A stretch of DNA of 64,000 bases from an uncultured Actinomycetota bacterium (GTDB taxonomy: Bacteria; Actinomycetota; Thermoleophilia; RBG-16-64-13), in NCBI GenBank assembly GCA_963701105.1, contig OY969565.1:102396-166395 (forward strand), read 5' to 3'. A model generated the notes under the pieces. It made no database searches. It was not told where the DNA came from and was given only the letters and a program-made list of their open reading frames with translations. The position numbers were made by a program, and so were the translations under genes. Below are positions 8,487 to 53,904 of the stretch, piece by piece; position 1 is the first letter of the stretch, and the number at the start of each line of letters is the position of its first letter.

Positions 8487-8487
8487 C

Positions 8488-23814: not shown

Positions 23815-23836
23815 GTTTTGCCTGGGAGGGAGCGCG

Positions 23837-24091: not shown

Positions 24092-24097
24092 CGGTCC

Positions 24098-24394: not shown

Positions 24395-24514
24395 CCCCCT
24401 GTCGGGCGACCCTCCTGCGCCAATGTCCGGAGCCCTCCAGGGGGACGTTCAGTCTGATATTGTCAGCCCAACGTCACCCCACGCGGCGGAGTCATCCGAA
24501 CTAGGCGAGGGATT

Positions 24515-24742
24515 ATGACTTTTGGCGAGTATGCTCTTGCTGCCCTTGTCGCGTTTGGCGATTTCCTGGTCTTCTTGGGCGCATGGCTCATGATGCTCTT
24601 CGCCTGGAGACGATTCCGGACCAGAAAGAAGCGATCCTTATCTAGTTATCTCCTGCTTTTCGCCTTCCCCGTGGGGATGATAATCATTTGGCTCACTGTC
24701 GGTCTCATGTACATCCTCTTCTTTGGAATACCGGAAGGGTAG
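24515..24742 (+). CDS. small membrane protein, two TM helices, unknown function
   Basis: 75 aa. Two hydrophobic helices flank RRFRTRKKR. Lower-GC islet. Confidence 0.45.
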   Translation: MTFGEYALAALVAFGDFLVFLGAWLMMLFAWRRFRTRKKRSLSSYLLLFAFPVGMIIIWLTVGLMYILFFGIPEG

Positions 24743-24750
24743 GTGAATGA

Positions 24751-25665
24751 GTGAGTCAATATGAGATGAATCGCATATGGAGCTGGAGGCCTTCGGTTAG
24801 AGTGAAGATCGTTCTCTTAGTGATCCCGATCGCCCTCGCGGCAGGGTTGGTGCTCGGACAGCACTCGAACGGGTCGGCGTCAGGATCACCGGAGGAGGCC
24901 GTCAGAGTGTATCTGGGTGCATTGGCGAGCGGGGACAAAGTCGCTGCGGATGCTGTGCTCTCCTCGCAAACGAGAGGTCATGCGTCCGAAGCAGAGGAAG
25001 ATGAGGCCTTCAACCTTGGGGGCATTGCAGCCTCCGGGGAGATCTCCGTCAACGGCTCCCGCCCCTTGGATGCAGTCAACGTTCTCGTCAAAGTTGGGTT
25101 CGTCGGCCGCGACGGAACTACTCAGACGCTTGAGATCCCCTCTGCGCTCGAAGACGGGTCGTGGCGGGTGAAGCCGATCACCAAGTCCATGATGACTCGT
25201 AGGCTCGAGGGGCCCTATCCGGCGGAGGCGCAGATGGCCAACGGAACACTGCGCGTCGCGGTGGGAGGGCTTGTGTTCTGGAAAGACCGGCCGTCCATCG
25301 GCCTGGACATCGAAGGAATCAATGTTGACGACAAGGTGATTCAAGTTTCGTGGCGGAAGTTCACAGCCACCCTCTCTGACGGGCAGACAACGTGGGCCGG
25401 AGACGTTTCCGTCTATTCGGACAACAACCCATATGGTCCGCGCGACCCGGCGGATGTCAGTCCTCCTCCTCTTGCTCCGGGGGGCCACATGATCATGCAT
25501 TTCGAGCTGGGCGGCGGGCAGCAACTGTCTGCCTCTGGGCCCTGGGCAGTGACCGTCCGCGACGGCGACGGAGAAACAGCCGAGATGAAGATGGAGCCTG
25601 CCATGTCGGATGCGCTGGTGATGGACCGTTGGCTCACGCTGTCCGGTGAGGAGAAGGCTTTCTGA
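24751..25665 (+). CDS. membrane-anchored hypothetical protein
   Basis: 304 aa. N-terminal TM anchor KIVLLVIPIALAAGLVLG. An EEAVRVYLGALASGD segment resembles DUF4878-type domains. The C-terminal beta-rich half is unassigned. Confidence 0.55.
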   Translation: MSQYEMNRIWSWRPSVRVKIVLLVIPIALAAGLVLGQHSNGSASGSPEEAVRVYLGALASGDKVAADAVLSSQTRGHASEAEEDEAFNLGGIAASGEISVNGSRPLDAVNVLVKVGFVGRDGTTQTLEIPSALEDGSWRVKPITKSMMTRRLEGPYPAEAQMANGTLRVAVGGLVFWKDRPSIGLDIEGINVDDKVIQVSWRKFTATLSDGQTTWAGDVSVYSDNNPYGPRDPADVSPPPLAPGGHMIMHFELGGGQQLSASGPWAVTVRDGDGETAEMKMEPAMSDALVMDRWLTLSGEEKAF

Positions 25666-25908
25666 GCGACGGCGTCTTCCGTGGTTCGGCTGCTCGGAAC
25701 CTAGGCCGGTTCCGCAGTTGGGGGCTGAGCGCTCGGAGCCGGCTGACGCCGGTCGAAAAAGAGATCATGGTGGCGCCACCTGACGGCGGCTGACTGGACG
25801 ATTAGCATCAGGCGGGGGCGCGCCGCCACGATCTGTGGGTCGTGCGGTTAGGTCGCGCCTGCGCCGGGTACCGCCAACGAGAACACAGACGAGAAGGAAG
25901 GGGTCCCG

Positions 25909-28536: not shown

Positions 28537-29034
28537 GTGGCCGACACAATGACGAACCTCGCTGATGCTTTTGCCGGGGAATCCCAGGCGAATCGGAAGT
28601 ATCTGGCCTTTGCGAAGAAGGCCGAGGAAGAGGGAATGCCGCAAGTCGCCAAGCGCTTTCGCGTGGCGGCATCTTCGGAGACCATTCATGCCCATGAGCA
28701 CCTCAAGGCGATGGGCGAGTTGAAGGATACGAGCGCCAATCTGGCTGCTGCGATCGGCGGCGAGAACTACGAACACAGCGCGATGTATCCGGAGTTCATG
28801 GAGATCGCAGTGAAGGAAGACAATGAGGATGCGAGGTTTTCGTTCTTCGCGGCCAACATGGCCGAGAAGTTCCACGAGAACATGTTCAGAGAGGCCGCCG
28901 AGAAGATGTCGGACCTTCAAGACAGTCGCTTTTTCGTGTGCCAGGTGTGCGGGATGACGTATGAACACGAAACGCCCGACGCATGCGTGGTCTGCTCCTC
29001 ACCGAAGCACCGCATCGAAGAGTTCGTCGAGTAG
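28537..29034 (+). CDS. rbr: rubrerythrin
   Basis: 165 aa. Diiron ferritin-like domain (E-x-x-H pairs: ESQANRKY, ETIHAHEH, ENYEHSAMY) and a C-terminal rubredoxin-like CQVCG...CVVCS. Confidence 0.9.
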   Translation: MADTMTNLADAFAGESQANRKYLAFAKKAEEEGMPQVAKRFRVAASSETIHAHEHLKAMGELKDTSANLAAAIGGENYEHSAMYPEFMEIAVKEDNEDARFSFFAANMAEKFHENMFREAAEKMSDLQDSRFFVCQVCGMTYEHETPDACVVCSSPKHRIEEFVE

Positions 29035-29041
29035 GGCGACT

Positions 29042-29251
29042 GTGCCGGCGGTCCCCGACACCCTCGAAGACGCCGCCCGCTGTGTCTGTGGCAGTTGTCC
29101 CAGTAAGCCGGAGGAGCTGAAGGGCTTCTATTGTGCGCGCGGTGCGAGCAGGAGCACGGTGCTGCGTCGAGGTTGCCTCTGCAATCAGTGCGACGTGCAG
29201 CTCGACTTCGATCTCACGACCGAGTACTACTGCGAGGGCAACGCGTCCTAG
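29042..29251 (+). CDS. DUF2769-like small Cys-rich protein
   Basis: 69 aa from GTG 29042. CVCGSCPSKPEELKGFYCARG...GCLCNQCDVQLDFDLTTEYYCEG matches the DUF2769 Cys pattern as I recall it. Confidence 0.55.
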   Translation: MPAVPDTLEDAARCVCGSCPSKPEELKGFYCARGASRSTVLRRGCLCNQCDVQLDFDLTTEYYCEGNAS

Positions 29252-29389
29252 GCGGGTGTGGCCGGCGCCCAAGGTGGTCGGGGTCGGCATCTCGACCGTG
29301 TAGCGTACATCCGCGTTGCGTATACTGTGAGCCGGCGGCCCCATCGGGCCGCCGGTCCCACGTAGAGCGCATGGAATCCGAGGTGCTTC

Positions 29390-30598
29390 ATGGAGCGGTA
29401 TCTACTGAAGGAAAACATATGGTGGGTGGGGGCGATCGACTGGAACTGCCGTGACTTCCATGGTTACGAGACACCACGAGGCACCACCTACAATTCGTAC
29501 CTGATCACCGATCAGAAGACCGTCTTGGTCGACGGGGTCCGCTCGGGCTTCGGCTCGGAAACGCTGCGGCGCATCAACAGCTGTTGCGACCCGCGTGGAA
29601 TCGACTACTTGGTCATCAATCACGTGGAGATGGATCACTCCGGGGCCATCCCGGGACTCGTCCGCGAGATGTCGCCGGTCAAGATCTTCTGCTCCAAACG
29701 GGCGAAAGACGCACTCGCTATCCTTTATGCCGAGGAAGGCTTCGGGGAGTGGGATATCGAGGTGGTGGCCACGGGCGACGAGATCTCACTCGGCACCTAC
29801 ACGCTCACCTTCCTGGAAGTACCCATGCTTCATTGGCCGGACAGCATGCTTACCTACATCAAAGAGGCCAAGGTGCTACTGGCCAACGACGGCTTCGGCC
29901 AGCACTTGGCCACATCGAAGCGATTCGCCGACGAGGTCGATCTGTCCGTGGCGATGGATGAGGCGGCCAAGTACTACGCCAACATCCTCATGCCTTTCGG
30001 TGCCCAGGTGCAGAAACTAGTGAAGACGGTGGGCGAGATGGGTCTGGAACTGGATGTCATCGCCCCCAGCCACGGAGTCATCTGGCGGCGTCCGCAGGAC
30101 GTGCAGGCCATCATCCAGTCATACGTCGATTGGAGCTCCTTCAAGGCGGAGCCGTCGGTGGCCTTGATCTTCGACACCATGTGGCATTCGACGGAGAAGA
30201 TGACGCGGGCCATCGAAGACGGCGTGGCGCAAGAGGGAGTCGCCTGCTCGGTCATCAAGCTCAGCAAGACCCCGCTGGCGGACGCCATTCAGACCATACA
30301 GGCCTGCCGCGGCTTCTTCGTGGGCACTCCCACGCTCAACAACACCATGTTGCCGTCGGTAGGTGCGTTCATGACCTACATCAAGGGGCTCCGTCCCAAG
30401 CAGCGCGTGACGGGTGCTTACGGTTCCTTCGGCTGGGGCGGCGGCGGCGTGAAGCAGGTAGACGCCGGGCTGCGCGAGCTTGGGCTCGAGGTGGTCGATC
30501 CGCTCGAGTTCAAGTACGTGCCCTCGAGCGCGGATCTGGCCGCCTGTGAAGAATACGGGCGCGAGATCGCCCGCCGCGTCAAGGCCTGGGAGGCCTGA
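29390..30598 (+). CDS. FprA-type flavodiiron protein (A-type flavoprotein)
   Basis: 402 aa. Metallo-beta-lactamase-like diiron domain (NSYLI, INHVEMDHSGA) plus a C-terminal flavodoxin-like domain. Confidence 0.9.
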   Translation: MERYLLKENIWWVGAIDWNCRDFHGYETPRGTTYNSYLITDQKTVLVDGVRSGFGSETLRRINSCCDPRGIDYLVINHVEMDHSGAIPGLVREMSPVKIFCSKRAKDALAILYAEEGFGEWDIEVVATGDEISLGTYTLTFLEVPMLHWPDSMLTYIKEAKVLLANDGFGQHLATSKRFADEVDLSVAMDEAAKYYANILMPFGAQVQKLVKTVGEMGLELDVIAPSHGVIWRRPQDVQAIIQSYVDWSSFKAEPSVALIFDTMWHSTEKMTRAIEDGVAQEGVACSVIKLSKTPLADAIQTIQACRGFFVGTPTLNNTMLPSVGAFMTYIKGLRPKQRVTGAYGSFGWGGGGVKQVDAGLRELGLEVVDPLEFKYVPSSADLAACEEYGREIARRVKAWEA

Positions 30599-36260: not shown

Positions 36261-36995
36261 CTAAGCCCGTCCCCGGCGGCCGTGGGGGCAGACCGCCACG
36301 CAGACGCCGCAGATCTCGGTGCCGCTTTCCTGCTTGGCCTCTTCTCGGTAGCGCCTGCAGGCCGCGACGTCCATACGCGACTCGATAGGTTCCGTCGGAT
36401 CGAACGGGCGACCGGTAAAGGCTCGAGCCGGACAGGCGTCCACGCAGAGCGTGCAGGCCCCGCAGTCGCGCGCAAGAGGGGCTCCCGCCTCGAGTGGGGC
36501 GTCCGTGAGCACCGTCACCAGCCGCACTCGGGGGCCGGCCTCCGGGGTCACGAGCAGGCAGCTCCTCCCGATCCAGCCGAGCCCGGCCCTGCCGGCAACC
36601 AGCTTGTGTGAGAGGGGGCCTCGATAACCGGCCGCGTCGATAGCGAGTGAGGTGGGGATGGACATGGCGGCGTGACCTGCCTCCTGCAGAGCTGCCGCCA
36701 CCAGGGTCGCCGCCTGGTCGAGCAGCCCGTTGACGATCTTGTAGATGTGGAAGCCGTAAGTCTTGGCCACCAGGGGCGCTCTGTGTTCCTCGGGGAGGCG
36801 GTCCACCACCGTGTCCTGGAGGCGGAAGACGATGGATACGGCGCGTGGGAAGGCGGCCAGCTCCTCGTCTCCCTGGGCGCGCACCGCGGCCGAGACGGCA
36901 TCGTCTTCGAGCGAGGCTATCCCCACGCGGTGCGCGCCTAGTTGCACAGCGATGCGCGTCACGCGCGCGGTGAGATCGTGTGGGTCCGGTGTCAC
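36261..36995 (-). CDS. 4Fe-4S dicluster protein, QueG/reductive-dehalogenase-related fold
   Basis: 244 aa. LGWIGRSCLLVTPEAGPRVRL, CGACTLCVDACP and CGVCVAVCP motifs. Confidence 0.65.
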   Translation of the reverse strand: MTPDPHDLTARVTRIAVQLGAHRVGIASLEDDAVSAAVRAQGDEELAAFPRAVSIVFRLQDTVVDRLPEEHRAPLVAKTYGFHIYKIVNGLLDQAATLVAAALQEAGHAAMSIPTSLAIDAAGYRGPLSHKLVAGRAGLGWIGRSCLLVTPEAGPRVRLVTVLTDAPLEAGAPLARDCGACTLCVDACPARAFTGRPFDPTEPIESRMDVAACRRYREEAKQESGTEICGVCVAVCPHGRRGRA

Positions 36996-41930: not shown

Positions 41931-42335
41931 TCAGAGAAGGAGCGAGAGAGCGACTTTGGTGCCGCCGCGTGCGGTCTTCGAGATGCACACCTCGTCCATG
42001 AGCGCCACCATGAGGGGGAGGCCGAGCCCCCGATTGTCCCGGCCGGAGCGGAGCTGAGCGGCCGGTACGCGGAAGTCACCGCTGTCACTGACCTCAAAGA
42101 CGATCCGGTCGGAGTATATGAACGCGCAGACCTCGAGAGGTTCGTGGTCACCGCCGGAGTGCTCGACCGCGTTGGCGCAGGCTTCGGAGACCGCCACCTT
42201 GAGGTCGAAGATCTTCTCATCGCCGAGGACCGCCTCCGCCGCCGTCTCCTCGACGAAGCGTCGAATCTCTGCGAGTCGGACCGGGTCGGGCGCTACGGAG
42301 ATCATGCGGCAGCGCGAAGTGTGACTCATATTCAA
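41931..42335 (-). CDS. anti-sigma regulatory factor (RsbW/SpoIIAB-like Ser/Thr kinase, HATPase_c_2)
   Basis: 134 aa. KVAVSEACANAVEH...NRGLGLPLM. Overlaps the STAS gene stop. Confidence 0.75.
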   Translation of the reverse strand: MNMSHTSRCRMISVAPDPVRLAEIRRFVEETAAEAVLGDEKIFDLKVAVSEACANAVEHSGGDHEPLEVCAFIYSDRIVFEVSDSGDFRVPAAQLRSGRDNRGLGLPLMVALMDEVCISKTARGGTKVALSLLL

Positions 42336-42706
42336 CGTTCCGTCTGCTTCTGGACAGCAGCTGCAGCTGCTTCTCTGTCGTCGAACAGCCGGAAACCCTG
42401 ATCCACCTGGAGCCCCACTATCTCGAAGAGTCTGCGCACGTTCGCATTCGGGTTGACGGCCGCCAGCCAGCCTTCGTCACGCAGCCGACGGACGGTGGAT
42501 AGCAGTACCGAGATTCCTCCGGAGTCGATGTAGGTGACGTCGCTGAGGTCAAGTAGGATCGTCTTCGCCCCCTCGTCGAGGATGGGATCCAGTTCTGCCT
42601 GGAGGGTCCCCGAACTCCCGTGGTCGATCTCTCCGCTCACAATGACCAACGGCAGGCCGTCCAGACTCTCGGTCGAAACCAGCATCTCACTCCTTCTGTA
42701 GCCCAC
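42332..42706 (-). CDS. STAS domain anti-sigma-factor antagonist
   Basis: 124 aa. ILLDLSDVTYIDSGGISVLL carries the phosphorylatable Ser motif. Confidence 0.85.
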   Translation of the reverse strand: MGYRRSEMLVSTESLDGLPLVIVSGEIDHGSSGTLQAELDPILDEGAKTILLDLSDVTYIDSGGISVLLSTVRRLRDEGWLAAVNPNANVRRLFEIVGLQVDQGFRLFDDREAAAAAVQKQTER

Positions 42707-42800: not shown

Positions 42801-43964
42801 TCAATCTGTAAGGTGTTGCACGGTGGTCAGGGCGTAGCCCTCGTTCAGCAGCCAATCGATGACCGTGGGTAGAGCTGCGACCGTTTGCGATCTGTCGCCC
42901 CCACCATCGTGCATCAGTATCACGGCTCCGGGGCGGACCGCCGCCTGCACGCGCGACACGATGGAGGATGCCTCGCGGATCTTCCAATCGAGCGTGTCCA
43001 CATCCCACAGCACCAATCGTTGCCCGAGCGCGCTCGCCTGTTCCGCGACGGTCGTGTTATAGGCGCCGTAGGGGGGCCGCAGGAAGCGGGTGCCGCCAAG
43101 CGTCTGCTCGGCACGGGAGATCTCGGACTTGATGGCCTCTGGGCTGAGCTTGGTGAGGTCGGCGTGGCTCCACGAATGGTTCTCGACCTCGTGCCCGGCA
43201 TTGCGGGCGGTGCCGATCATCCCGGGCCGGCCGGCGGCGACGTTGCCCACCCAGAAGAAGGTGGCGGAGACGCCCTTCTCGGCCAGCACCGCCAAGATCT
43301 GGGGAGTGTAGGTGCTGGGGCCGTCGTCGAAGGTCAAAGCGACTGTTTTTTGGCCGGCCGTCACCCCGGGACTGCGCCGCAACACCGCGTCCACGGGTTG
43401 GCGGGTGACGAACTCCGCCACCTTGCGATTCGTCGTGTCTCCCACGAACGTCTCGCGCTCGCCGTCGGAGCCCTTCTGTACCAAGGCAACCACGACCCCG
43501 CTGCCTTCCGAGCGCGACTCGTGGGGGATGGCGGCGGTCTCTCTGACTAAGCGTTCGAAGCGGTCGCCTCCGCGCCGGGTGGTTATCACCGACCCGTCGA
43601 GGAGGGCCAGATCGAGCGGGGCCACCGATGAATCCACCTCGACCGTACCCGGGCCGCCCCCGCCGAGAACGATCACGTCGCCGGCCACGTCGAGCTTCGC
43701 GCCTTGCGCCGGGGCGACGTGGCGCGCCTCGGCCACCTGTGCCACCGTCGTCCCCGGGCCCACCATCACGGGCGTGCCGTCGACGAGCAAGAATCGGGCC
43801 GAGCCCAGGCCCGGCGCCGGCCACGCGACGGTCAGGATCAGGGCCAGCACGATGGCGGTGATCAGCACTCTGAGGCCGGCGCGCCACCAGGCGCCCGACC
43901 TCGGCGCCCGGCGGCGCCGCGCGTCTTCGCCGGCGGCGCGGCGGTATGCCGGGTCCGTGGTCAC
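42801..43964 (-). CDS. membrane-anchored polysaccharide deacetylase (NodB homology domain) with N-terminal DUF348-like region
   Basis: 387 aa. TM anchor, VALTFDDGPSTYTPQIL, HEVENHSWSH and ILMHDGGGDR. GTG 43964 overlaps the nuoI-fusion stop (GTGA). Confidence 0.85.
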   Translation of the reverse strand: MTTDPAYRRAAGEDARRRRAPRSGAWWRAGLRVLITAIVLALILTVAWPAPGLGSARFLLVDGTPVMVGPGTTVAQVAEARHVAPAQGAKLDVAGDVIVLGGGGPGTVEVDSSVAPLDLALLDGSVITTRRGGDRFERLVRETAAIPHESRSEGSGVVVALVQKGSDGERETFVGDTTNRKVAEFVTRQPVDAVLRRSPGVTAGQKTVALTFDDGPSTYTPQILAVLAEKGVSATFFWVGNVAAGRPGMIGTARNAGHEVENHSWSHADLTKLSPEAIKSEISRAEQTLGGTRFLRPPYGAYNTTVAEQASALGQRLVLWDVDTLDWKIREASSIVSRVQAAVRPGAVILMHDGGGDRSQTVAALPTVIDWLLNEGYALTTVQHLTD

Positions 43965-45931
43965 GGAAGGCCGTCCTTGTTCGGCATCTCGTCGGGCTTG
44001 TCGAAAGGCCGGAGCATCTTCTCCCGGTCGTAGAAGAGATCGCGTCGTCCTCTCTCGGCATAGTCGAAGTCAGCGGCCAAGCTCAACGTCTGAGTGGGGC
44101 ACGCGTCCTGGCAGAATCCGCAGAAGCAGCACCACTCCATCATGAAGTCGTAACGCTCTACGCGACGCTCGAACCCGGTGTCGTAGCCGGCCACGTCGAT
44201 GCAGTTGTCGGGGCACACCCGTGCGCACAGGGTGCATGCCACGCACACGTGCGTCTGGCAGCGCATGCAGCGTATGGCTTCACGGTGTCCGTCACCTTTG
44301 GGCCATCCCAGTTCCACCTGTTCACCCGTGCGGACGCGGGTACGGGGGTTCGATTCGGGCATGTGGACCCGGCGGCCACCCGGCCCAAAATGCTCGAAAT
44401 CAGGCGGGTTGGGAGCATAGGGTTGCTGTAGGTAGTACTCAGGCGGGTGTACCGGCGGGCGCCGATCTTCCGTGAGGGGCAGCCCCTGGATATGACGGTG
44501 CACGGACAGCGCCGTCTCGTGCGCTTGGCCGATGGCGATGATGATGGTGCGGGGACCGGTGGCGAGGTCGCCCGCGAGGAAGACTCCGTCGAGCGCCGTG
44601 GCTCCGGTGCTCTGGTCGCACACGGGCCGACCCAGTGCGTCGAACTCCACGCCCGATCCCTGCAGGAAACCCACGTCCAGCCTCTGGCCGACGGCGAAGA
44701 TCACACTCTGGCAGGCGATCTCCGTGACCTCATCGGAGTACTTGAGATTCCACTTGCCGCTGGCATCGAAACGCGAGGCCACCTTCCGGAGGCGTATGCC
44801 CGCCACCTTGCCCTTCTCCACGAGGATCTCGTCTGGTCCCCACTCGGACAGGAGCACGACGCCCTCCTCGATCGCGCCTGAGACCTCCACGTCCTGAGCG
44901 GGCATGCCCTCTCGATCCTCCACGTGCGCCTGCAGGGACAGGCTGGCTCCGCACCTGAGAGCACTGCGTGAGCAATCGCATCCCACATCGCCTCCGCCGA
45001 TGATCACCGCCTCCGGACCCACCTTCGGATCCTCGCCCATGCAGTAGGCGTAGAGGAAGTCGATCGCCGACCATACGCCTTCGGCCTCGTGGCCGGGTAT
45101 GGGGAGTATGCGGCCGCCCGAGTAACCGACGGCGACGACCACCGCGTCATGCTCGGCTCGGAGTCGTTCGAAGGTAATGTCGACACCCACCTTGACCCCG
45201 AACTTGAACTCGACGCCCAGTTCGGCGATGTCGGCGATCTCTCGGGCCACGACACTCCGGTCGAGACGGTACAGGGGCACGCTCGTGACCAGCAACCCCC
45301 CAGGCAGCCGTTCACGTTCATAGACGGTGACGCGGTAGCCCATCTGGACTAAGTCGTAAGCGGCAGCGATGCCGGCCGGCCCCGCGCCGATGACGGCCAC
45401 GTGCTCCTGGCGATGCACGAGGTTCTCGAGGTGTCCCGGGAAGCGCGCCTCGCGATCGTAGACTTCGTAGCAATCCCGGTGGAGTTGTCTGATGGCGATG
45501 GGGTCGTCGAGATAGGATCGACGGCACACGTCCTCGCACGGGTTGTTGCACACATAGCCGAGGACCGCGGGCAGGACGTTCCGGCGGCGCACGAGGTTAT
45601 AGGCCTCGATGTATCGCCCGGCAGCGACCAGAGCGTTCTGGCCGCGGGCGTCCACGTTGGCCGGGCAGCCGCCCTGGCACGGGGCGATCCGGCGTTGCTC
45701 GTGCAACTCGGTCATGAGGTCGTTGAATTCGAGCGGTTCGGCATCGGTCACGGGGGGCGGTTCGTCGTCCATGACGCCACGCAGACGCAGTGGTCCGCGC
45801 CAGCGGGGCGAAAGCTGCGCCGGTTCCTTCGGATACATGCGGGTGACCGGAGGGGAGACCATCTGTTTCAGGGTCTCCATGTGGCCGCGGGCCATACCCA
45901 CCCAAGGTTTCAGCAGGCTTTCCCAGCTCAC
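43961..45931 (-). CDS. nuoI: NuoI (complex I 2x[4Fe-4S] subunit) carrying an internal GltD-like NAD(P)H/FAD oxidoreductase insertion
   Basis: 656 aa from GTG 45931, which overlaps the nuoD stop. The N-terminal 50 aa, VSWESLLKPWVGMARGHMETLKQMVSPPVTRMYPKEPAQLSPRWRGPLRL, are NuoI-like. The C-terminal ~104 aa, CMRC..CVACTLCARVCP...YDFMMEWCCFCGFCQDACPTQTLSLAADFDYAERGRRDLFYDREKML, are the NuoI ferredoxin core. Between them (about nt 44297-45775) lies PCQGGCPANVD...GYVCNNPCEDVC (GltD Fe-S region), VAVIGAGPAGIAAAYDL (FAD), VIIGGGDVGCDCS (NAD(P)H) and VFLAGDLATGPRTII. Confidence 0.8.
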   Translation of the reverse strand: MSWESLLKPWVGMARGHMETLKQMVSPPVTRMYPKEPAQLSPRWRGPLRLRGVMDDEPPPVTDAEPLEFNDLMTELHEQRRIAPCQGGCPANVDARGQNALVAAGRYIEAYNLVRRRNVLPAVLGYVCNNPCEDVCRRSYLDDPIAIRQLHRDCYEVYDREARFPGHLENLVHRQEHVAVIGAGPAGIAAAYDLVQMGYRVTVYERERLPGGLLVTSVPLYRLDRSVVAREIADIAELGVEFKFGVKVGVDITFERLRAEHDAVVVAVGYSGGRILPIPGHEAEGVWSAIDFLYAYCMGEDPKVGPEAVIIGGGDVGCDCSRSALRCGASLSLQAHVEDREGMPAQDVEVSGAIEEGVVLLSEWGPDEILVEKGKVAGIRLRKVASRFDASGKWNLKYSDEVTEIACQSVIFAVGQRLDVGFLQGSGVEFDALGRPVCDQSTGATALDGVFLAGDLATGPRTIIIAIGQAHETALSVHRHIQGLPLTEDRRPPVHPPEYYLQQPYAPNPPDFEHFGPGGRRVHMPESNPRTRVRTGEQVELGWPKGDGHREAIRCMRCQTHVCVACTLCARVCPDNCIDVAGYDTGFERRVERYDFMMEWCCFCGFCQDACPTQTLSLAADFDYAERGRRDLFYDREKMLRPFDKPDEMPNKDGLP

Positions 45932-47118
45932 CTGTCCACGTCTCCCATCACCGGGTCGAGAGTCCCCACGATGTTGATGAGGTCCGACAAGGTGTATCCC
46001 ACCGCCAGGGCTGGCAGCATGGCTACGTTGTGGAACGAGGCTCCCCGCCACTTCATGCGGTAGGGCTTCGGACCCCCGTCGCTCACCAGGTAGCACCCGA
46101 TCTCTCCTCGGGGCGACTCCAGGCGGGCGTAGGCTTCCCCAGGCGCCGGTGTGGGGATGCGCGGGATGCGATCTGCCAGGAAAGGGCCTTCGGGGATATC
46201 GTCGATGGCCTGTTGAATGATCTTGGCGCTCTCGATCATCTCGTCGACACGGACTTCGGTGCGGTCGTAGACGTCGCCGGTGGTCCCCACGGGTACGTCG
46301 AAGTCGAAACGGTCGTAGATGGAGTAGGGCATGTCTTTGCGCAGATCCCAGCGGTATCCGGTGGCCCGCAGCACCGGGCCCTGCGCTCCGATGCGCAGGG
46401 CCTCCTCGGGCGTCAAGGTGCTTATGCCCTTCGAGCGCTCGTGCCAGATGTAGTTGTCGTGGAAGAGCCTGCGGTACGAGGGGAACTCGTCGATCACGGA
46501 GCGCAGCGCGCCCCTCACTCGTTCGAACCAGCCCGGAGGCGCGTCATAGATGACGCCGCCCAGCCTCATGTACACGTAGGTGAGGCGCGCTCCGCAGATC
46601 TCCTCCAAGAGACGCACCAGGCGTTCGCGGGCCTCGAAGCACCAGAGGAAGTAGGTCGGGGCGCCTGTGTCGAGACCGAGGGCTCCGATGGAGATCAGGT
46701 GACTCGCCATGCGGTTGATCTCGGCCACGATCACACGCAGATATTCTGCGCGCTCCGGAACGGTGATGCCCAGGAGACGCTCGGCCGCCAAGCAGTACAC
46801 CCAATCGTTGTGCATGGCCGCCAGATAGTCGGCAGTGCGGTCAGTGAAAGCGATGACCTGGGGATAGGTGCGGTTTTCGACGATCTTCTCCAAGGAGCGG
46901 TGCATATAGCCGATGCGTACGTCCAGGCCCGCGACCTTCTCGCCGTCGAGACGGGTGACAAGCCGCATGACGCCGTGGGTGCCCGGGTGGTGGGGGCCGA
47001 TGTTGATGAGGAAATCCTGGACGTCGTCCGCAGCCTGGGAATCCCCCTCGGGAACCGCCCTTTCGGGGATATCGGGAGGCATCTGCCGGTTGGGTCCCAT
47101 CGGGGTCTCCATAGGCAT
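45928..47118 (-). CDS. nuoD: NADH-quinone oxidoreductase subunit D
   Basis: ATG 47118 (MPMETPMG...) overlaps the frame-corrected nuoC stop. INIGPHHPGTHGVMRL, ESPRGEIGCY and C-terminal DPVMGDVDR. The NiFe-hydrogenase Cys ligands are absent, so this is NuoD-type. Confidence 0.9.
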   Translation of the reverse strand: MPMETPMGPNRQMPPDIPERAVPEGDSQAADDVQDFLINIGPHHPGTHGVMRLVTRLDGEKVAGLDVRIGYMHRSLEKIVENRTYPQVIAFTDRTADYLAAMHNDWVYCLAAERLLGITVPERAEYLRVIVAEINRMASHLISIGALGLDTGAPTYFLWCFEARERLVRLLEEICGARLTYVYMRLGGVIYDAPPGWFERVRGALRSVIDEFPSYRRLFHDNYIWHERSKGISTLTPEEALRIGAQGPVLRATGYRWDLRKDMPYSIYDRFDFDVPVGTTGDVYDRTEVRVDEMIESAKIIQQAIDDIPEGPFLADRIPRIPTPAPGEAYARLESPRGEIGCYLVSDGGPKPYRMKWRGASFHNVAMLPALAVGYTLSDLINIVGTLDPVMGDVDR

Positions 47119-47664
47119 CAGAAGTACTGGGGCCGGGATATCGCCACTCGGTCCACGTAGTCTTTCCGCAGCGGGTGCCCTTCCCAGCCGTCCGGGTTCA
47201 GGATGCGTCGCAGATCCGGATGGCCGGCAAAAGACGAGGCCGAACTGGTCGTATGTCTCCCGCTCCTCCCAATCGGCCAGCGCCCACAGATCCGTCACGG
47301 TGGCGACTTCCTCCCCGTCACGAGCCACGCGTGTGCTCAGTCGCACCTGCAGTCGGTTCTCGATGCCGTAGGCCTGCAACGTGAGCGTCAGGTGGTGGCG
47401 CCAATCCACGCAGGTGATGAAATCGAGCCGATCGATCCCCTGTTCCCGCACTATCTCCGCGGCGTGCCGATAACCTGAGAGCTGCACCCGCAGGCACACC
47501 ACGCCGTCGTCGCCGTCGTGGTAGCCGATCAGGCCCGCGCCCAACTGCGTGCGGAGGGACTCGAGCAGCCTCTCCCGGCCGGCCTGAGTGGGGGAAGGCG
47601 GGACCGTCCCTGGCGGCATGACAGTGGGGTCGCCGGCTGCGGGTGGCGTGGCTGGTCCGCTCAC
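47118..47664 (-). pseudogene. nuoC: NADH-quinone oxidoreductase subunit C with 1-nt insertion in a T4 run (plus-strand AAAA 47229-47232)
   Basis: The track shows a single 578-aa NuoC-NuoD ORF. After ...[15 protein letters not shown] it reads [19 protein letters not shown]..., which is not NuoC-like. Skipping one T gives [36 protein letters not shown], the canonical NuoC C-terminus, ending at TGA 47118-47120 and overlapping the nuoD ATG. Confidence 0.75.
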
Positions 47665-48128
47665 GTCCAGTCCACCTCCGCCTTCTCGGTGATGATGCGC
47701 TCGAGTTCAAGGATACCGTCGATGAGCGCCTCCGGGCGGGGCGGGCAGCCCGACACGTAGACGTCTACCGGCACGATCTGGTCTACGCCCTTCACCACGC
47801 TGTACCCGTCGTGGTAGTAGAGACTGCCGGCCGTGGCGCAGTTGCCCATGGCGATGACCCAGCGGGGTTCCGGCATCTGCCGGTAGACGCGTTCTACCAT
47901 GCCGGCCACCTTGTAGGTGACCGTCCCCGAGACGATGAGCAGATCCGATTGCCTTGGTGACCCACGTGGCATGACGCCGAAGCGGTCGAGGTCGTAACGA
48001 GAAGCGTTCGCAGCCATCATCTCGATGGCGCAGCAGGCGAGGCCGAACATCATCTGCCACAATGATCGAGAACGAGCCAAGGAGATGGCGTGCTGGGCCG
48101 CCCCCAAGATGACCCCGGGGGCCACCAA
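47661..48128 (-). CDS. nuoB: NADH-quinone oxidoreductase subunit B
   Basis: 155 aa. [22 protein letters not shown] and GCPPRPE (N2 cluster ligands). Stop overlaps the nuoC GTG. Confidence 0.9.
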
Positions 48129-48418
48129 GAGCGGGCCGAACTCCCGATGCTCGGGTCGATCGAGCGGGACCAGGACCCCCCGGTCGATCCAGGGACGGGC
48201 GGGTATAGAGGGCGGACCGGTGCTGTTGGATTCTGCTATGTTGCCAACCTCCGTGGGCCGGGAGTCGTCTCGGGGCCGCGTTCGACCTCCGCAGGGTGCA
48301 GTGCCCGTTCAGGGCGCGGACGAAACCCGGGCCCTGCGGCCGTGACGTTGATTATGCCGTCGGCCATCAGGGTAAGCAACCCATGGTCGTCGAAGCGGGG
48401 AGGGTGGTATTGGCCGGG

Positions 48419-48778
48419 ATGTATCTTTCGGACGTGGTGTTCTTGCTGGGGTTCGCCCTTGCCGTTGTCTCCCTTCCAATACTGACACTCGCCTTTTTCA
48501 GCCTCCTCCGCCCGCGCCACGCCGAGTCGTTGAAGGGTGAGGCCTACGAGTCGGGTATGCCCCAGGCGAGCATCCCGCGCCGCCCCTTCCACATGGCCTA
48601 CTACAACTTCTCACTGGTCTTCATCGTGTTCGAGGTCGAGACGTTGCTGATCTTCGCCATCGCCCCGGTCCTGCGCGACGCGGGCTGGTGGGGACTGGCC
48701 GAAGTAGCGGTGTTCGTCGTCATGGTGACTCTCGGCCTTGCCTACGCCTGGCGTAAAGGAGCTCTGGTCTGGAAGTGA
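48419..48778 (+). CDS. nuoA: NADH-quinone oxidoreductase subunit A
   Basis: MYLSDVVFLLGFALAVVSLPILT...YESGMP...FIVFEVETLLIF...WRKGALVW. Start ATG 48419, or GTG 48404. Transcribed divergently from nuoB. Confidence 0.85.
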   Translation: MYLSDVVFLLGFALAVVSLPILTLAFFSLLRPRHAESLKGEAYESGMPQASIPRRPFHMAYYNFSLVFIVFEVETLLIFAIAPVLRDAGWWGLAEVAVFVVMVTLGLAYAWRKGALVWK

Positions 48779-49737
48779 GTCATCTGCTCACCTTCGCGCT
48801 CGGCCTTCTGCTGGGAGTGGTCGCATTCACCATCGTGGGCGCCCTGACTGCGATCTTGGTGCTCACAGAACGCAAGGTGGGCGCACGCATCCAGGGCCGC
48901 GTGGGACCCATGCACACCGGCCCGCAGGGTTCGCTGCAGACCATCGCCGACATGGTCAAACTGGTGATGAAGGAGGATGTGCGCCCGGCGCGGGCAGATG
49001 CCGTGGCGTTCAGAGTGGGCCCGTTGCTGGTGGCGGTGCCTGCCATCCTGTCCCTGGCCGTCATCCCCTTCGGCGGCCCCCTCATCATGCGCGACCTGAA
49101 CGTCGGCGTGCTCTACTTCCTCGCCGTTCCGGGAGTCACGGTGGTGGGCCTCCTTCTCGCCGGGTGGGCGAGCTACGACAACTACTCGTTCCTCGGCGGC
49201 CTGCGTTCATCGGCACAGTTCATCAGCTACGAGATCCCCCGCGGCCTGGCCGTAGTCACCGTGGTGATGCTGGCGGGCTCTTTGAGTACGGTCGACCTTC
49301 TGGAGGCTCAGAGCCGTGTCCCCTACATCCTGCTGCTGCCGCTCAGTTTCCTCATATACGCGATCACGTCGCTGGCGGAGGTCAACCGGATCCCGTTCGA
49401 CATCCCCGAGGCCGAATCCGAGTTGGTGGCCGGCTACCACACCGAATACTCGGGGTTCCGCTGGGCCCTCTTCTTCCTGGCCGAGTATGCCGGACTGTTC
49501 GCCGCCTCGGCCTTCGGCGCCTTGCTGTTCTTCGGCGGCGGGAACGGCCCGCTGCTGCCTCCGGTGGTCTGGCTCCTCCTCAAGACGTCCGCGCTCATGT
49601 TCGTGGGCATCTGGATCCGTTTCACACTCCCTCGATTCCGCGCTGATCAACTCATGAGGCTGGCTTGGAAGTTCTTTCTTCCGCTTTCGCTCGTGAACCT
49701 CGTGATCGCCGCCCTCGTGATGAAGGCAGTGGCGTGA
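48775..49737 (+). CDS. nuoH: NADH-quinone oxidoreductase subunit H
   Basis: 320 aa. LTERKVGARIQGRVGP, GSLQTIADMVKL and EAESELVAGYHTEYSG. Confidence 0.95.
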   Translation: MSHLLTFALGLLLGVVAFTIVGALTAILVLTERKVGARIQGRVGPMHTGPQGSLQTIADMVKLVMKEDVRPARADAVAFRVGPLLVAVPAILSLAVIPFGGPLIMRDLNVGVLYFLAVPGVTVVGLLLAGWASYDNYSFLGGLRSSAQFISYEIPRGLAVVTVVMLAGSLSTVDLLEAQSRVPYILLLPLSFLIYAITSLAEVNRIPFDIPEAESELVAGYHTEYSGFRWALFFLAEYAGLFAASAFGALLFFGGGNGPLLPPVVWLLLKTSALMFVGIWIRFTLPRFRADQLMRLAWKFFLPLSLVNLVIAALVMKAVA

Positions 49738-50225
49738 GTCTCCAGGACTCGCTCTTCGTCGGCTTCGGGCTGATCGCGGTGGCCGGGGCGCTGTACGCCG
49801 TGCTCACGCGTTCTTTGCTGCGCGCCATCGTGGCCCTCGGTGCTTTCCTCACGGCCGTGGCCGGGGAGTTCTACCTGCTGTCCGCCGACTTCGTCGCCGT
49901 CGTGCAGATCTTCGTGTACGTGGGAGGCGTGCTGGTCCTCATGCTGTTCGCGCTGATGCTCTCCGCTTCCGGAGTGCGTCATCCTCTTGCCGCCATCGAT
50001 CGCCCGGGGCTGGGGGCCGTACTCGCGTACGTCATCGGTGGCGGGCTGGTGTGGGCCTCGTTGACCGCCGGCACCTTCGTGCCGGCCGAGTTGCCCGAGG
50101 ATGCGGTGGGCGCCCTGGGGCGGGCCCTGCTGGGAGCGCAACTCGGCCCCTTCGAACTCATAGGCGTGATACTCCTCGCCTCGGTCATCGCCGCGCTCTC
50201 GATCGCGCGCAGGGAGCAGCCATGA
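49734..50225 (+). CDS. nuoJ: NADH-quinone oxidoreductase subunit J
   Basis: GTG 49734 overlaps the nuoH stop. FVAVVQIFVYVGGVLVLMLF. Confidence 0.85.
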   Translation: MSLQDSLFVGFGLIAVAGALYAVLTRSLLRAIVALGAFLTAVAGEFYLLSADFVAVVQIFVYVGGVLVLMLFALMLSASGVRHPLAAIDRPGLGAVLAYVIGGGLVWASLTAGTFVPAELPEDAVGALGRALLGAQLGPFELIGVILLASVIAALSIARREQP

Positions 50226-50524
50226 CCACCGCGGCCCTGGTGCTCTCCTCCGTACTCTTTGCCGTCGGGGTGTTCGGCGTGCTGACGCGCAGGAACGCCA
50301 TAACCCTGCTGGTGTCGGTGGAGATCATGATGAACGCCGCGAACATCAATTTCGTGGCGTTCTCGCGCGTCCACGAACCCGCGGCGATGACCGGGCAGGT
50401 CTTCGCGCTGCTCGGTATAGGCATCGCCGCCTGCGAGGCCGCCGTGGGGTTGGCCTTGATCTTGGCGGTGCGCCGCCGCTTCGGCGGCACCGACGTCCAT
50501 TCCATCGATCTGTTGAAGGGCTGA
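50222..50524 (+). CDS. nuoK: NADH-quinone oxidoreductase subunit K
   Basis: 100 aa. ATG 50222 overlaps the nuoJ stop. LLVSVEIMMNAANINFV and AACEAAVGLAL. Confidence 0.9.
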   Translation: MTTAALVLSSVLFAVGVFGVLTRRNAITLLVSVEIMMNAANINFVAFSRVHEPAAMTGQVFALLGIGIAACEAAVGLALILAVRRRFGGTDVHSIDLLKG

Positions 50525-50528
50525 CCGG

Positions 50529-52445
50529 GTGTCCGCCGTGCTCGTAGCCGTCTTCGCCGTTCCCCTGCTCGTGTGCCTGGCCCTGTTCGTGGGAGCGGCG
50601 GTCGCGTCCCGTCGGGGAGAGGGCCCCACACGCGAGTGGGGTCGCCTGGCCGGATGGATATCGTCCGCCGGCGCGCTCACCGCTCTCATCCTGGCGGTCA
50701 TCGCGTTCCTCTCCTACCGCGCGGGCACCGACGTATCGGTGAGCGCCGTATGGTTCCACGTGGGAGATCTGGAGGTACCGTTCAGCCTTAGACTCGACGG
50801 TCTGCAGGCGGTCATGGCCGTGGTGGTGGCCGCGGTCGCCTTCCTCGTGCACCTCTACTCCGTGGGATACATGCACGGCGACCGCGACGTCTCCGTGTAC
50901 TTCGCGGAGTTGTCCTTGTTCACAGCGGCCATGCTGCTCCTGGTGCTCTCGTCCAACTTCTTCTTGCTCTACCTGGCCTGGGAACTCGTCGGCGCGAGTT
51001 CCTACCTGCTGATCTCCTTCTACTTCGAGCGCCCGGCGGCCGCCGCCGCGGGCAAGAAGGCCTTTCTCACTACCAGGATCGGCGATCTGGGCCTGCTCAT
51101 CGCTCTGTTTTCCATCGTGTGGCAGACGGGCTCGCTGGACTACGACACGGTGTTCGCCTGGGCCGCGACTCCCGGCTTCCAGGGCGCGTGGGCGGTGGCC
51201 ATCCCCTTGTTGGTGTTCGCCGGTGCCGTGGGCAAGTCGGCGCAGTTCCCGCTGCACGTGTGGCTCCCGGACGCCATGGAGGGTCCCACGCCGGTCTCGG
51301 CCCTCATCCACGCCGCTACCATGGTGGCGGCCGGCGTGTATCTGGTGGCCCGAGCCTACCCTCTGTTCGAAGCGGCCCCCGCAGCCCTCGATGTGGTCGC
51401 CTACATAGGCGCCTTCACGGCGCTGATGTCGGCGACGGTGGCCGTCACCCAGAGCGACATCAAGAAGGTGCTCGCGTACTCCACCATCAGTCAACTGGGT
51501 TTCATGATGGCGGCGCTGGGCGCAGGCGCTCCGGAAGCGGGGGTCTTTCACCTCTTCACGCACGCGTGGTTCAAGGCCCTCCTGTTCCTGGGCGCGGGCA
51601 GCGTCATACACGCCACCGGGAGGCAGACGGTGCAGGAATTGGGGGGACTGGTGAGGACCATGCCGGTGACCGCGTGGACCTTTGCGGTGGGCGGCCTGGC
51701 CCTCGCCGGCATCCCGCCCTTCGCCGGCTTCTGGAGCAAGGAAGAGGTGCTCGGGTCGTTACTCGCACATCAGCCGGTGCTCGCCGTGGCCCTGCTGCTG
51801 GCGAGCTTCCTCACCGCCGTCTATATCGGGCGGCTGTTCCTCCTTGTGTTCTTGGGCCGGCCCCGTCTCGCGGATGACGCCCGCGCGAGGGGGCATGAGT
51901 CACCCTGGGTCATGACCGTGCCGCTGCTGGTGTTGGCCACGGCCTCGCTGGTCTCCGGCTTCTTCGGAGCCGGCTTCCTCGGGCAGCGCCTACAACACTT
52001 CCTCTCCATCGGGGCGGCCGGGGCCGAGGCTCAGGGCACCCCCGTGTGGTTCACAGCCCTGGCCATCACCGTGGGGTTCGCCGGTCTCGCCGCGGCGTGG
52101 CTCGGCTACGGGCGGTCCCCGGAGCGAGCGGGCGATGCCCTCGGTTTCGACATCCAACTGCGGGAGACACTGGGTCGCGCATACGGTGTCGTCGAGCGTG
52201 CCTACCTGGTGAACGAGTTCTACGGGCGGACGGTGGTGGGTCCGTTGGTGGCCGCGGGCCGTTTCCTGTGGTCGGGAGTCGACGGCCGGGTGATAGACCG
52301 CGCCGTCGACGGTCTGGCGCGCGTCATTCCCGGCCTCGGCGGCCTCGTCCGCCGCGTGCAGTCGGGTGAGGTCCGGGATTACCTCGCGGCGGTGGCTCTC
52401 GGCGTGATCCTGCTGGTGGCCCTGGCTCTGGGAGGGCTGAGGTGA
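50529..52445 (+). CDS. nuoL: NADH-quinone oxidoreductase subunit L
   Basis: 638 aa. WELVGASSYLLISF, GKSAQFPLHVWLPDAMEGPTPVSALIHAATMV, and a C-terminal lateral-helix region. Confidence 0.9.
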   Translation: MSAVLVAVFAVPLLVCLALFVGAAVASRRGEGPTREWGRLAGWISSAGALTALILAVIAFLSYRAGTDVSVSAVWFHVGDLEVPFSLRLDGLQAVMAVVVAAVAFLVHLYSVGYMHGDRDVSVYFAELSLFTAAMLLLVLSSNFFLLYLAWELVGASSYLLISFYFERPAAAAAGKKAFLTTRIGDLGLLIALFSIVWQTGSLDYDTVFAWAATPGFQGAWAVAIPLLVFAGAVGKSAQFPLHVWLPDAMEGPTPVSALIHAATMVAAGVYLVARAYPLFEAAPAALDVVAYIGAFTALMSATVAVTQSDIKKVLAYSTISQLGFMMAALGAGAPEAGVFHLFTHAWFKALLFLGAGSVIHATGRQTVQELGGLVRTMPVTAWTFAVGGLALAGIPPFAGFWSKEEVLGSLLAHQPVLAVALLLASFLTAVYIGRLFLLVFLGRPRLADDARARGHESPWVMTVPLLVLATASLVSGFFGAGFLGQRLQHFLSIGAAGAEAQGTPVWFTALAITVGFAGLAAAWLGYGRSPERAGDALGFDIQLRETLGRAYGVVERAYLVNEFYGRTVVGPLVAAGRFLWSGVDGRVIDRAVDGLARVIPGLGGLVRRVQSGEVRDYLAAVALGVILLVALALGGLR

Positions 52446-53904
52446 TCGGCCTACTCCTGCTCCTGCCCAAGGCGACCATCGGCATCGCCGCGCTGCTTGC
52501 CCTCCTGCTCGATTCGATCACGGGCGGGCGGGCGCGCCGCCGCGTGGTCCTCGCGGTCGTGGTGCTGCTCTCGGTCGGAGCGGTGGTTGCGATCGTAGGC
52601 ATAGGCCGGACCGGAGTGTTCTTGGAAGGTACGCTCGTGGTCGATCGCTTCTCCATCTTCGCCGACATCGTGCTCTTGGTCCTCGGCGCCGTAGTGGCGC
52701 TCGCGGCGCTTAACGGGGTGGGGTCGGAGAAAGAAGCCGGCGACTTCTACACCCTGTTCTTCCTCTCTCTTGCCGGAGCCTCGGTCCTCGCGTCCGCCGG
52801 CAGCCTCATCATGGTGTTCCTCGCCATCGAGCTCGCCCTCATCCCCACCTTCGCCCTCGTGGCGTTCAGGGCCGAAGACCGCCGAAGCTTCGAAGCGGCC
52901 CTCAAGTACTTCCTGCTCAGCGTCTTCGCGTCGGCCATCATGCTCTTCGGTTTCTCGCTCGTGTACGCCGCCGTGGGCACCGTCGCCCTCCCTCTTCCGG
53001 GCGACGCGCCTCCTCCGGCCTCCTCTTGGCCGGGATAGGACTGACGCTGGCCGGTTTCGGGTTCAAGATCGCCGCCTTTCCCTTCCACCAGTGGCTGCCC
53101 GACGCGTTCGAGGTGTCGCATCCGGAGGTAGCCGCCTTCCTTGCCGTGGGGCCGAAACTGGCGGCCATCGTGGCCCTCGTCCGGATCCTGGAGGGTCTGG
53201 CGGCCCAGAACGGTGCCTGGACGTCGGCCGTCGCCGCCATCGCGGTCCTGAGCATGGTGTGGGGGAATCTTGGCGCGTTCCGACAGCGGCGTCTCCCCAG
53301 ACTGCTCGCATACTCCGCGATCGCGCACGCCGGCTACGCGCTCGTGGGCCTTGCCGGGGGCGGCCCTCGGGGCATGGAGGGTGCCGTGGTGTACTTCGCG
53401 GCCTACAGCGCGGCTGCCGTGGGGGCCTTCCTGGTCGTAGGGATCCTGTCCCGTGGAGGCATCGGCGACAGCCTGGGCGACGTAGTCGGGCTGGGGCGGA
53501 GACGCCCCCTGGTGGCGGCCGCCATGACCGTCTTCATGATCTCACTGGTGGGCGTGCCTCTGTTCGCCGGCTTCTGGGGGAAGTTCTCGGTGTTCCTCGG
53601 GGCGGTGGAGGGTGGAGTGGTGTGGTTGGCGGTGGTGGGCGTGCTGAACAGCGCCATGTCCTTCGGATACTACGGTAACGTGATCCGCATCATGTACCTC
53701 GAGGGTGGCACCGACGCGGCGTCTGCGCGGTCCGCCGCCGGCGTGCCGGCCGGCGGGGTCTCGGCGCACGGTCAGACAGTCGTGGCCGGCGCTGAAGGTT
53801 GGGGCATCCGCGTCGCGCTGGGAGTCGCCGTAGCGCTCACGATGCTGCTGGGGATCGTGCCGGGAATACTCTTCGGAGCCCTGGGAGTGAGCGCGGGTCC
53901 TTGA
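52442..53904 (+). pseudogene. nuoN: NADH-quinone oxidoreductase subunit N, split by an apparent -1 frameshift around 52990-53030
   Basis: Track ORFs 52442-53038 and 53026-53904 are the N- and C-terminal parts of one NuoN: ...FLAIELALIPTFALVAF... then ...FGFKIAAFPFHQWLPDAFEVSHPEVAAFLAV.... The second frame reads ...SSGLLLAGIGLTLAGF upstream of its nominal start. The junction is a C/T-rich repetitive stretch (CCCTCCCTCTTCC...CCTCCTCC). Confidence 0.75.

Follow-up and report, generated by a model that had tools for sequence, protein, structure and literature searches.

The locus at positions 43961-53904 of a 64,000-nucleotide (nt) stretch of contig OY969565.1 (assembly GCA_963701105.1, contig positions 102,396 to 166,395 of the forward strand; hereafter the window) from an uncultured Actinomycetota bacterium of the Thermoleophilia raises the question of what enzyme is encoded by a set of complex I (nuo) genes without nuoE, nuoF, nuoG and nuoM. 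Open reading frame (ORF) listing, Pfam and NCBIfam identified ten nuo genes, arranged as two diverging arms with nuoB-C-D-I on the minus and nuoA-H-J-K-L-N on the plus strand; their coordinates and strands were essentially those of an initial annotation of the window. The nuoI gene encodes a protein of 656 amino acids (aa) with an inserted GltD/NfnB-like module. Overall, the sequence evidence supported a Nuo-type, non-hydrogenase complex I-like locus. With slightly more confidence than doubt, the product is read as an NAD(P)H:quinone oxidoreductase of the complex I family that is bound to the membrane and pumps protons; a single-polypeptide input module within NuoI would serve a complex without NuoM and, at face value, of ten subunits.

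The fusion gene (nuoI, 43961..45931, minus strand) was resolved into three parts by Pfam, NCBIfam, PDB sequence matches and Foldseek. Residues ~1-50 form the NuoI N-terminal segment (TRMYPKEP..SPRWRGPLRL; VTRMYPKEPAQLSPRWRGPLRL), and this N-terminus (VTRMYPKEP..SPRWRGPLRL) resembles that of canonical NuoI, as in E. coli. Pfam assigned residues ~78-540 to Fer4_20 (PF14691) and the flavin adenine dinucleotide (FAD)/NAD(P)-binding Pyr_redox_2 domain (PF07992), and residues ~555-645 correspond to the NuoI 2x[4Fe-4S] domain. NCBIfam placed TIGR01971 (NuoI) at 559-639 and PRK12771 at 78-619, and residues 558-645 matched NuoI/TYKY chains in the PDB. The GltD/NfnB-type module of ~500 aa is inserted between the NuoI N-terminal segment and the two-cluster ferredoxin domain. 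Its best PDB sequence and fold matches were the GltD-like parts of NfnABC (9bov, 9n5u) and StnC (8oh5), together with NfnI-L, NfnB, GltD and DPD, and Foldseek yielded the same families as the PDB sequence search. Other homologues of 656 aa exist. The GltD-like domain that the initial annotation had placed within NuoI was confirmed by all of these searches.

Comparison of 24 full-length homologues showed that C85 and C89 (PCxGxCP), C128, C132, E133, C136, C555, C558 and the eight NuoI cysteines were invariant, and both CxxCxxCxxxCP motifs were invariant in the fusion alignment. C555 and C558 belong to an RCxRC motif C-terminal to the flavin domain. The candidate ligands of the GltD-type clusters are seven invariant cysteines and E133; two of the seven lie after the flavin domain, where the AlphaFold model is too poor for geometry. 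The predicted local distance difference test score (pLDDT) of the model was above 90 over residues ~160-490, which cover the flavin and NAD domains. The set of invariant residues is consistent with two GltD-type [4Fe-4S] clusters in addition to N6a and N6b. At the position of YRR(S/T) in NADPH-dependent PDB homologues, the window protein has QAHVEDRE (H-V-E). E338 was conserved in at least 90% of the fusion family and the Firmicutes member has YRR(S/T). Because H-V-E with a near-invariant Glu replaces YRR(S/T), the usual Rossmann-fold rule suggests that the electron donor is probably NADH rather than NADPH.

The remaining subunits were of the Nuo type. NuoD (45928..47118, minus strand, 396 aa from the ATG at 47118; NF004739 442.6 bits, cut-off 360), NuoH (48775..49737, plus strand, 320 aa; NF004741 338 bits, cut-off 305), NuoL (50529..52445, plus strand, 638 aa; NF005141 644 bits, cut-off 556), NuoK (50222..50524, plus strand, 100 aa, with both membrane Glu present) and NuoB (47661-48128, minus strand, from a TTG) exceeded the curated NCBIfam Nuo cut-offs, which for NuoH and NuoK are equivalog cut-offs. 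NuoA (48419..48778, plus strand) and NuoJ (49734..50225, plus strand, 163 aa) were found by Pfam and NCBIfam and passed Pfam thresholds only. The NuoL match covered profile positions 7-610 of 615, and the protein has a full-length lateral helix (HL) and transmembrane helix (TM) 16. In NCBIfam, the Nuo models outscored the Fpo models, which fell far short of their cut-offs, and hydrogenase models also scored lower. The Q-module subunits B, C, D and I were present with N2 and N6a/b cluster ligands, the N2 ligands in NuoB being a tandem CC, GNCA and GCPP. The E-channel membrane subunits NuoA, H, J and K were also present. NuoD retains three quinone-site residues, namely His (in GPHHPGTHGV), Tyr (in RIGYMHRSLEK) and Asp (in LGLDTGA); the His and Tyr correspond to H38 and Y87 of T. 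thermophilus Nqo4. As the initial annotation had noted, NuoD ends in DPVMGDVDR, has no NiFe cysteine motifs and is not of the Ech/Mbh kind. The conserved TM5 Glu and the TM7/8/12 Lys residues were found in both NuoL and NuoN.

The second antiporter-like gene (nuoN, 52442..53904, plus strand) scored 335 bits with TIGR01770, above the cut-off, and 151 bits with the NuoM model; its best PDB matches were NuoN/ND2/NdhB chains. Against relatives that have M, the window protein showed 35-49% identity to the gene in the N position, its orthologue, and 27-29% to the M genes. An assignment of this gene as NuoM was ruled out by these three results. Membership among Mbx/Mbs/Mbh/Ech complexes was rejected on the presence of NuoA and NuoJ, the Nuo-type L and N subunits in NCBIfam and a NuoD without Cys motifs. 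Membership among Fpo or cyanobacterial NDH-1 complexes was likewise rejected, as the locus encodes no FpoF, NdhS/O/V etc. and Fpo models scored lower.

No nuoE, nuoF, nuoG or third PF00361 gene was found among the larger ORFs (~40) of the 64-kb window checked by Pfam, in agreement with the initial annotation. The other ORFs scanned were housekeeping genes, including leuB/leuA-like genes, feoB, dnaE, hisS, hisF, gcvP/T, a two-component system and rubrerythrin. The canonical N-module NuoE/F/G, with flavin mononucleotide (FMN) and clusters N1a, N1b and N3-N5, was absent from the locus and window, and NuoE/F/G were absent from all fusion-type loci examined. A tblastn search with NuoL and NuoN against nine related loci (L001-L009) matched only L and N genes. 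Of the three antiporter-like subunits L, M and N, only L and N occur in the locus and the window, and the same is true of those related loci that include the plus arm. That nuoL is followed directly by nuoN was also correctly described, the two genes overlapping here and standing in the same order in those relatives. The description of 4-nt overlaps throughout each arm held for most junctions, with GTGA/ATGA overlaps at A/H, H/J, J/K, L/N, B/C and D/I; however, K/L is a 4-nt gap and C/D overlap by 1 nt after frame repair.

A genome scan with the fusion protein as query found nine loci from Thermoleophilia, Gaiellales and unclassified Actinomycetota metagenome-assembled genomes (MAGs). Every scanned locus with both arms showed the same divergent layout, with nuoL followed by a single N-type gene. 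This divergent M-less layout was seen in L002, L004, L007, L008, L009, L013 and the pair L001 and L014, and the M-less layout was also found in the short-read assemblies L002, L004, L013 and L014. The layout recurred in at least nine Thermoleophilia/Gaiellales loci, and the architecture is conserved rather than a one-off. More distant fusion proteins were found in loci that keep nuoM. A sister actinobacterial MAG (L011, GCA_020723435.1; fusion identity 50%) has a divergent locus with A-H-J-K-L-M-N, a Coriobacteriia-like contig (L010; ~42%) has colinear A-B-C-D/H-I-J-K-L-M-N and a Firmicutes MAG (L012; 38%) has colinear A-B-C-D-H-I-J-K-L-M-N. A metagenome contig of the European Nucleotide Archive (ENA), k141_3179178 (L017; 33%), carries C-D-I-A-H-J-K followed by an M/N-like gene (481 aa) and then an L-like gene (678 aa). 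Since the fusion occurs in 11-gene L/M/N complexes (L010, L011 and L012), the input module was gained in one event and M lost in another. By these comparisons, the NuoI-GltD fusion marks a family of EFG-less complex I that is broader than the M-less clade, and the loss of nuoM from the operon is derived, a later and clean deletion in one Thermoleophilia/Gaiellales subclade. The initial annotation had proposed a distinct ten-subunit, two-antiporter member of the family with a fused input domain. The fusion and the lack of EFG and M in the locus stood, but a two-antiporter complex is not established and the fusion also occurs in the 11-gene forms.

Frame anomalies were seen in some of these relatives. 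In L010, a 692-aa gene call (7932-10010) joins the NuoD and NuoH domains and the frame changes at the NuoL N-terminus; in L007 and L008, both nuoN and the fusion gene contain frame changes. Indel errors of long-read MAGs, rather than biology, are the probable cause.

Two frameshifts were also found in the window. The nuoC gene (47118..47664, minus strand; repaired product 181 aa) was identified by NCBIfam and comparison with L001, the nearest relative at 90% nucleotide identity. Where L001 has TTT, the window has TTTT (~47232). The insertion shifts the reading into the nuoD frame and produces an artificial C-D ORF of 578 aa, while the original frame still encodes a complete canonical NuoC C-terminus. 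A NuoC-NuoD fusion was rejected on these grounds, since relatives have separate genes; in close relatives NuoD is 390-407 aa. The nuoN gene had been annotated as one intact ORF, but it is split into 52442-53038 and 53026-53904 (198 and 292 aa). One base is missing near ~53008, where L014 has GACGCTGCC and the window GACGCGCC, and repair gives 487 aa, the length in relatives. In nuoH, L, N, D and the fusion gene, the ratio of nonsynonymous to synonymous substitution rates (dN/dS) against L001 and L014 was 0.05-0.11, which indicates purifying selection, and in nuoN it was equal around the frameshift (0.09 before and 0.10 after). Relatives within the 90% cluster have an intact NuoN of 487 aa and a separate NuoD. 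In a sister 685-kb ENA contig that falls in the same protein clusters, many nuo genes are fragmented, a pattern expected of an indel-prone assembly. Given the low dN/dS, the intact genes in relatives and the fragmented genes of the sister contig, the most likely source of both frameshifts is error in the assembly or very recent mutation.

The cofactors, substrates, direction, stoichiometry and actual subunit composition of the enzyme can be predicted from these sequences as follows. The GltD/NfnB-like module, with its FAD and Fer4_20 Fe-S part, would replace the NuoE/F/G N-module. Electrons would pass from NAD(P)H to FAD, to the GltD-type [4Fe-4S], to N6a/N6b in NuoI, to N2 in NuoB and finally to menaquinone, which would be reduced at the canonical NuoD/NuoH site. 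Protons would be translocated by the NuoH/A/J/K channel, NuoN and NuoL. The nuoM gene appears to have been cleanly deleted in a Thermoleophilia/Gaiellales subclade, and its deletion from the operon would leave nuoL overlapping nuoN. At face value, the complex would have one pump module fewer and translocate ~3 H+ per 2 e-. With NAD+/NADH at -320 mV and menaquinone at about -74 mV, ~0.49 eV is available per 2 e-. This suffices for roughly 3 H+ at normal proton motive force and the ratio fits the small NADH-to-menaquinone driving force; for this reason a three-channel enzyme would be thermodynamically sensible. In addition, genes for rubrerythrin, a DUF2769 protein, a flavodiiron-type protein (ODP/metallo-beta-lactamase plus flavodoxin) and a Fer4_16 protein were seen at 28537-30598 and 36261-36995 of the window, a hint of an anaerobic or microaerophilic host.

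Several observations weigh against the NAD(P)H:quinone oxidoreductase reading with ten subunits. The HL and TM16 of NuoL are not shortened in the M-less clade, and the distance from ES(P/G) to QSG in NuoL is 149-155 aa there against 137-144 aa in fusion relatives with M. The pLDDT of the fusion model is below 50 in the NuoI parts and the pairing of C555/C558 with C85/C89 is unreadable from it. Both frameshifts found in the ~24 kb compared fall within the nuo locus, and an exact look-up in the protein collection found none of the repaired NuoN, NuoC and NuoD sequences verbatim. The canonical HL runs along nearly the whole membrane arm with its three pump subunits, and TM15 and TM16 serve as anchors at either end (PMC3274701). 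After a simple loss of M, it should accordingly be about one subunit too long; the window NuoL aligns full-length to M. smegmatis NuoL (8e9g_L). TM16 may dock elsewhere, an M-type subunit may come from another locus, or NuoN may occupy two positions. A minimal complex I with ten subunits and two pumps (L and N), a one-polypeptide NADH module in NuoI, NuoM deleted in menaquinone-using Thermoleophilia, ~3 H+/2e- and an HL docking unlike that of all solved complexes is proposed tentatively, with more doubt than confidence. It is somewhat less probable, and on balance unlikely, that the same enzyme keeps three antiporter positions, with NuoM encoded elsewhere (stand-alone or from a canonical operon) or with NuoN used twice, in which case the two-pump, ten-subunit view would be an artefact of looking at a single locus. 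The full-length and conserved HL/TM16, no shorter than in M-bearing relatives, argues for this explanation, as does the link of helix length to pump number in PMC9040806 (citing Chadwick 2018), where an extra NuoM is accompanied by an HL insertion of ~26 aa; antiporter-like subunits encoded outside the core cluster are also used by cyanobacterial NDH-1 (PMC3144371). However, HL insertions are also reported in complexes without an extra subunit, which makes helix length no strict counter (PMC9040806). No M-type gene was found in the 10 kb flanking the fusion gene on each side in L002, L004, L007, L008 and L013, or in the window. The closest M-bearing relatives have M between L and N in the operon, so that a move to another site would have to be assumed in addition. 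With the M of the nearest M-bearing relative as query, the best 120 matches included none from the long contigs of the M-less clade, which is a weak test. Two of the top matches adjoin other nuo genes: the first belongs to a canonical operon with EFG, the second to a partial contig on which a second antiporter-like gene follows. They are not informative on M-less genomes.

Decay of the locus into a pseudogene cluster in this genome, with real and inactivating frameshifts in nuoC and nuoN, appears improbable. The two single-base coding indels are uncompensated and the only ones in the ~24 kb compared with the nearest relative, and the nuoN deletion lies outside a homopolymer. Selection is nevertheless unchanged across the nuoN shift, the nuoC tail is conserved in its original frame, all other reading frames are intact and no further lesions were found. 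The nuo genes make up nearly half of the compared coding sequence, which gives a chance of ~0.2 that both indels fall there at random, the window comes from a 1.34-Mb contig, and the nuo genes of the sister 685-kb ENA contig are fragmented in the manner of indel-prone long-read assemblies. Slightly less probable still is an enzyme that does not reduce quinone from NAD(P)H. It would either work in an Mbx-like manner, pumping ions while NAD(P)+ is reduced at the GltD-like domain with electrons from a low-potential donor such as ferredoxin, or run in reverse from quinol to NAD(P)+, driven by the proton motive force. For the mbx-like operons of Thermotoga, a gltD-related flavoprotein in the NuoI position has been read as the place where NAD(P)+ is reduced (PMC4758237); NfnB-type flavins act in ferredoxin-linked reactions in the matched structures, and the window carries the anaerobic markers rubrerythrin, flavodiiron-like protein and Fe-S proteins. 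Against it, the membrane arm (NuoA, H, J, K, L, N) is Nuo-type and not Mrp-type, NuoD keeps the quinone-site His/Tyr/Asp without vestigial NiFe Cys, the tandem-Cys N2 site of NuoB is typical of quinone-reducing complex I and the locus encodes no ferredoxin-docking subunit.

A long HL was also observed in a canonical EFG-containing operon (GC 51%) of an unrelated organism. The NuoL at L015:6072-7988 has a duplicated '(V)IDG.VNGV' segment in HL and an ES(P/G)-to-QSG spacing of 172 aa, ~28 aa above the others, with only L, M and N visible as antiporter-like genes on the contig.

The spacer between the two arms is probably shorter than its coding boundaries first indicated. The initial annotation gave ~275 nt; 290 nt separate the first canonical starts, and given an extension of nuoB only ~180 nt probably remain. 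In a comparison of the window with L002, L004 and L006-L009, the in-frame peptide upstream of the first ATG/GTG/TTG of nuoB (48129-48308, minus strand) was conserved in its amino acids, and changes at third codon positions were synonymous. The sole conserved start candidate in this extension is AT(A/C), in the window ATA at 48239-48237, which lies 7-8 nt after a conserved GGAGGT. From this pattern, nuoB appears to be translated with an N-terminal extension (probable gene 47661..48239, minus strand), and the conserved triplet suggests initiation at AUA/AUC. For nuoA, an alternative in-frame ATG lies at 48383, and the gene calls in L014 and L018 are 131 aa. Alignment of the spacers of nine loci showed a promoter-like motif facing nuoB at 48353-48381 (minus strand; TTGCTT-N17-CATAAT), conserved as TGGGTTGCTTACCC-N11-GGCATAATC in 6/9 of them. 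Because no more than ~40 nt separate this motif from the nuoA start, transcription of the two arms probably overlaps. A generic sigma-70 promoter and terminator scan of the spacer found nothing and missed the conserved motif.

Downstream of the fusion gene, a polysaccharide deacetylase gene (42801..43964, minus strand) overlaps the fusion stop with its GTG start (GTGA). The same gene was found downstream of the fusion in L001, L002, L004, L007 and L008; in L013 a STAS gene comes next and no deacetylase was among the called genes. The deacetylase is probably not part of the complex. Beyond it, a STAS anti-sigma antagonist and HATPase_c_2 kinase pair is encoded (41931-42706, minus strand), which in L013 directly follows the fusion gene. 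Elsewhere in the window, ARAGORN predicted an 81-nt tRNA-Val(GAC) at 12189-12269 (minus strand), probably a false positive, since these positions fall where the dnaE ORF (8861-12454) encodes its C-terminal part. A region of ~2.2 kb (23676-25908) has no long ORF with high G+C at third codon positions and a G+C of 0.60 against ~0.66 for the window. Finally, an Rfam scan of the window found no RNA families.

As a gene arrangement, the M-less fusion-type complex I is, by its sequence conservation, a real variant in Thermoleophilia that is robust at the gene level, whereas its two-pump assembly is a tentative proposal. No characterised case was found of a GltD-type domain that is fused into NuoI and takes the place of the whole NADH-input module. 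In the EFG-less Anaerosomatales, the order nuoABCDHIJKLMN has been reported and the electron donor was guessed, e.g. ferredoxin (PMC9686372). The Coriobacteriia-like and Firmicutes fusion loci have that same order, and the fusion family suggests a candidate answer to the question of the electron donor of EFG-less complex I. If the two-pump assembly is true, it would offer a natural test of H+/e- stoichiometry against driving force (NADH to menaquinone) and of the role of the lateral helix, as well as a smaller and genetically simpler complex I for structural and mechanistic work.

Among known systems, the locus shares with the 11-subunit NUO11 complexes (archaeal Fpo/Fqo, cyanobacterial and chloroplast NDH-1, Campylobacter Nuo and Anaerosomatales OPB41) the Q-module B, C, D and I, the Nuo-type subunits A, H, J, K, L and N, the lack of NuoE/F/G and an alternative electron input (PMC3144371, PMC4453560, PMC9686372). 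However, those complexes all retain L, M and N and depend on separate partner proteins (FpoF; NdhS/ferredoxin; flavodoxin with Nuo-X/Y), whereas here the input module is covalently inside NuoI and nuoM is absent from the operon. The literature search found no described NuoI-GltD fusion in Nuo-type complexes, the only related remark being that on Thermotoga mbx-like operons (PMC4758237). In those Thermotoga and proteobacterial operons, a GltD-like NAD(P)-binding flavoprotein stands at the NuoI position (Degli Esposti 2015, PMC4758237). By their description, however, they are Mbx/Mrp-type, with a NuoD homologue carrying vestigial Cys and a proposed reduction of NAD(P)+ (PMC4758237), unlike the Nuo-type complex of the window with its canonical quinone site.

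The module itself belongs at residues ~80-490 to the same fold and sequence family as NfnB/NfnI-L, the GltD-like domains of NfnABC and StnC, GltD and the N-terminal domains of DPD. It shares with the NfnB/GltD family the cluster motifs CxxxCE..C and PCxxxCP, and RCxxC after the flavin domain as in 9bov_A. Those enzymes are soluble and have YRR(S/T), whereas here HVE is found and the domain is embedded in a subunit of a membrane complex. With regard to pump number, the literature search found no described M-less complex I, and Nuo-type examples were found with added pumps and none with one removed. Natural variation in the number of antiporter-like subunits is shared with the Nitrospira '2M' complex, the 'green' complex I and Manganitrophus Complex_I_3 (PMC9040806). 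Those complexes gain pumps together with an HL insertion of ~26 aa, whereas in the M-less clade a gene appears to have been lost and the HL is unshortened.

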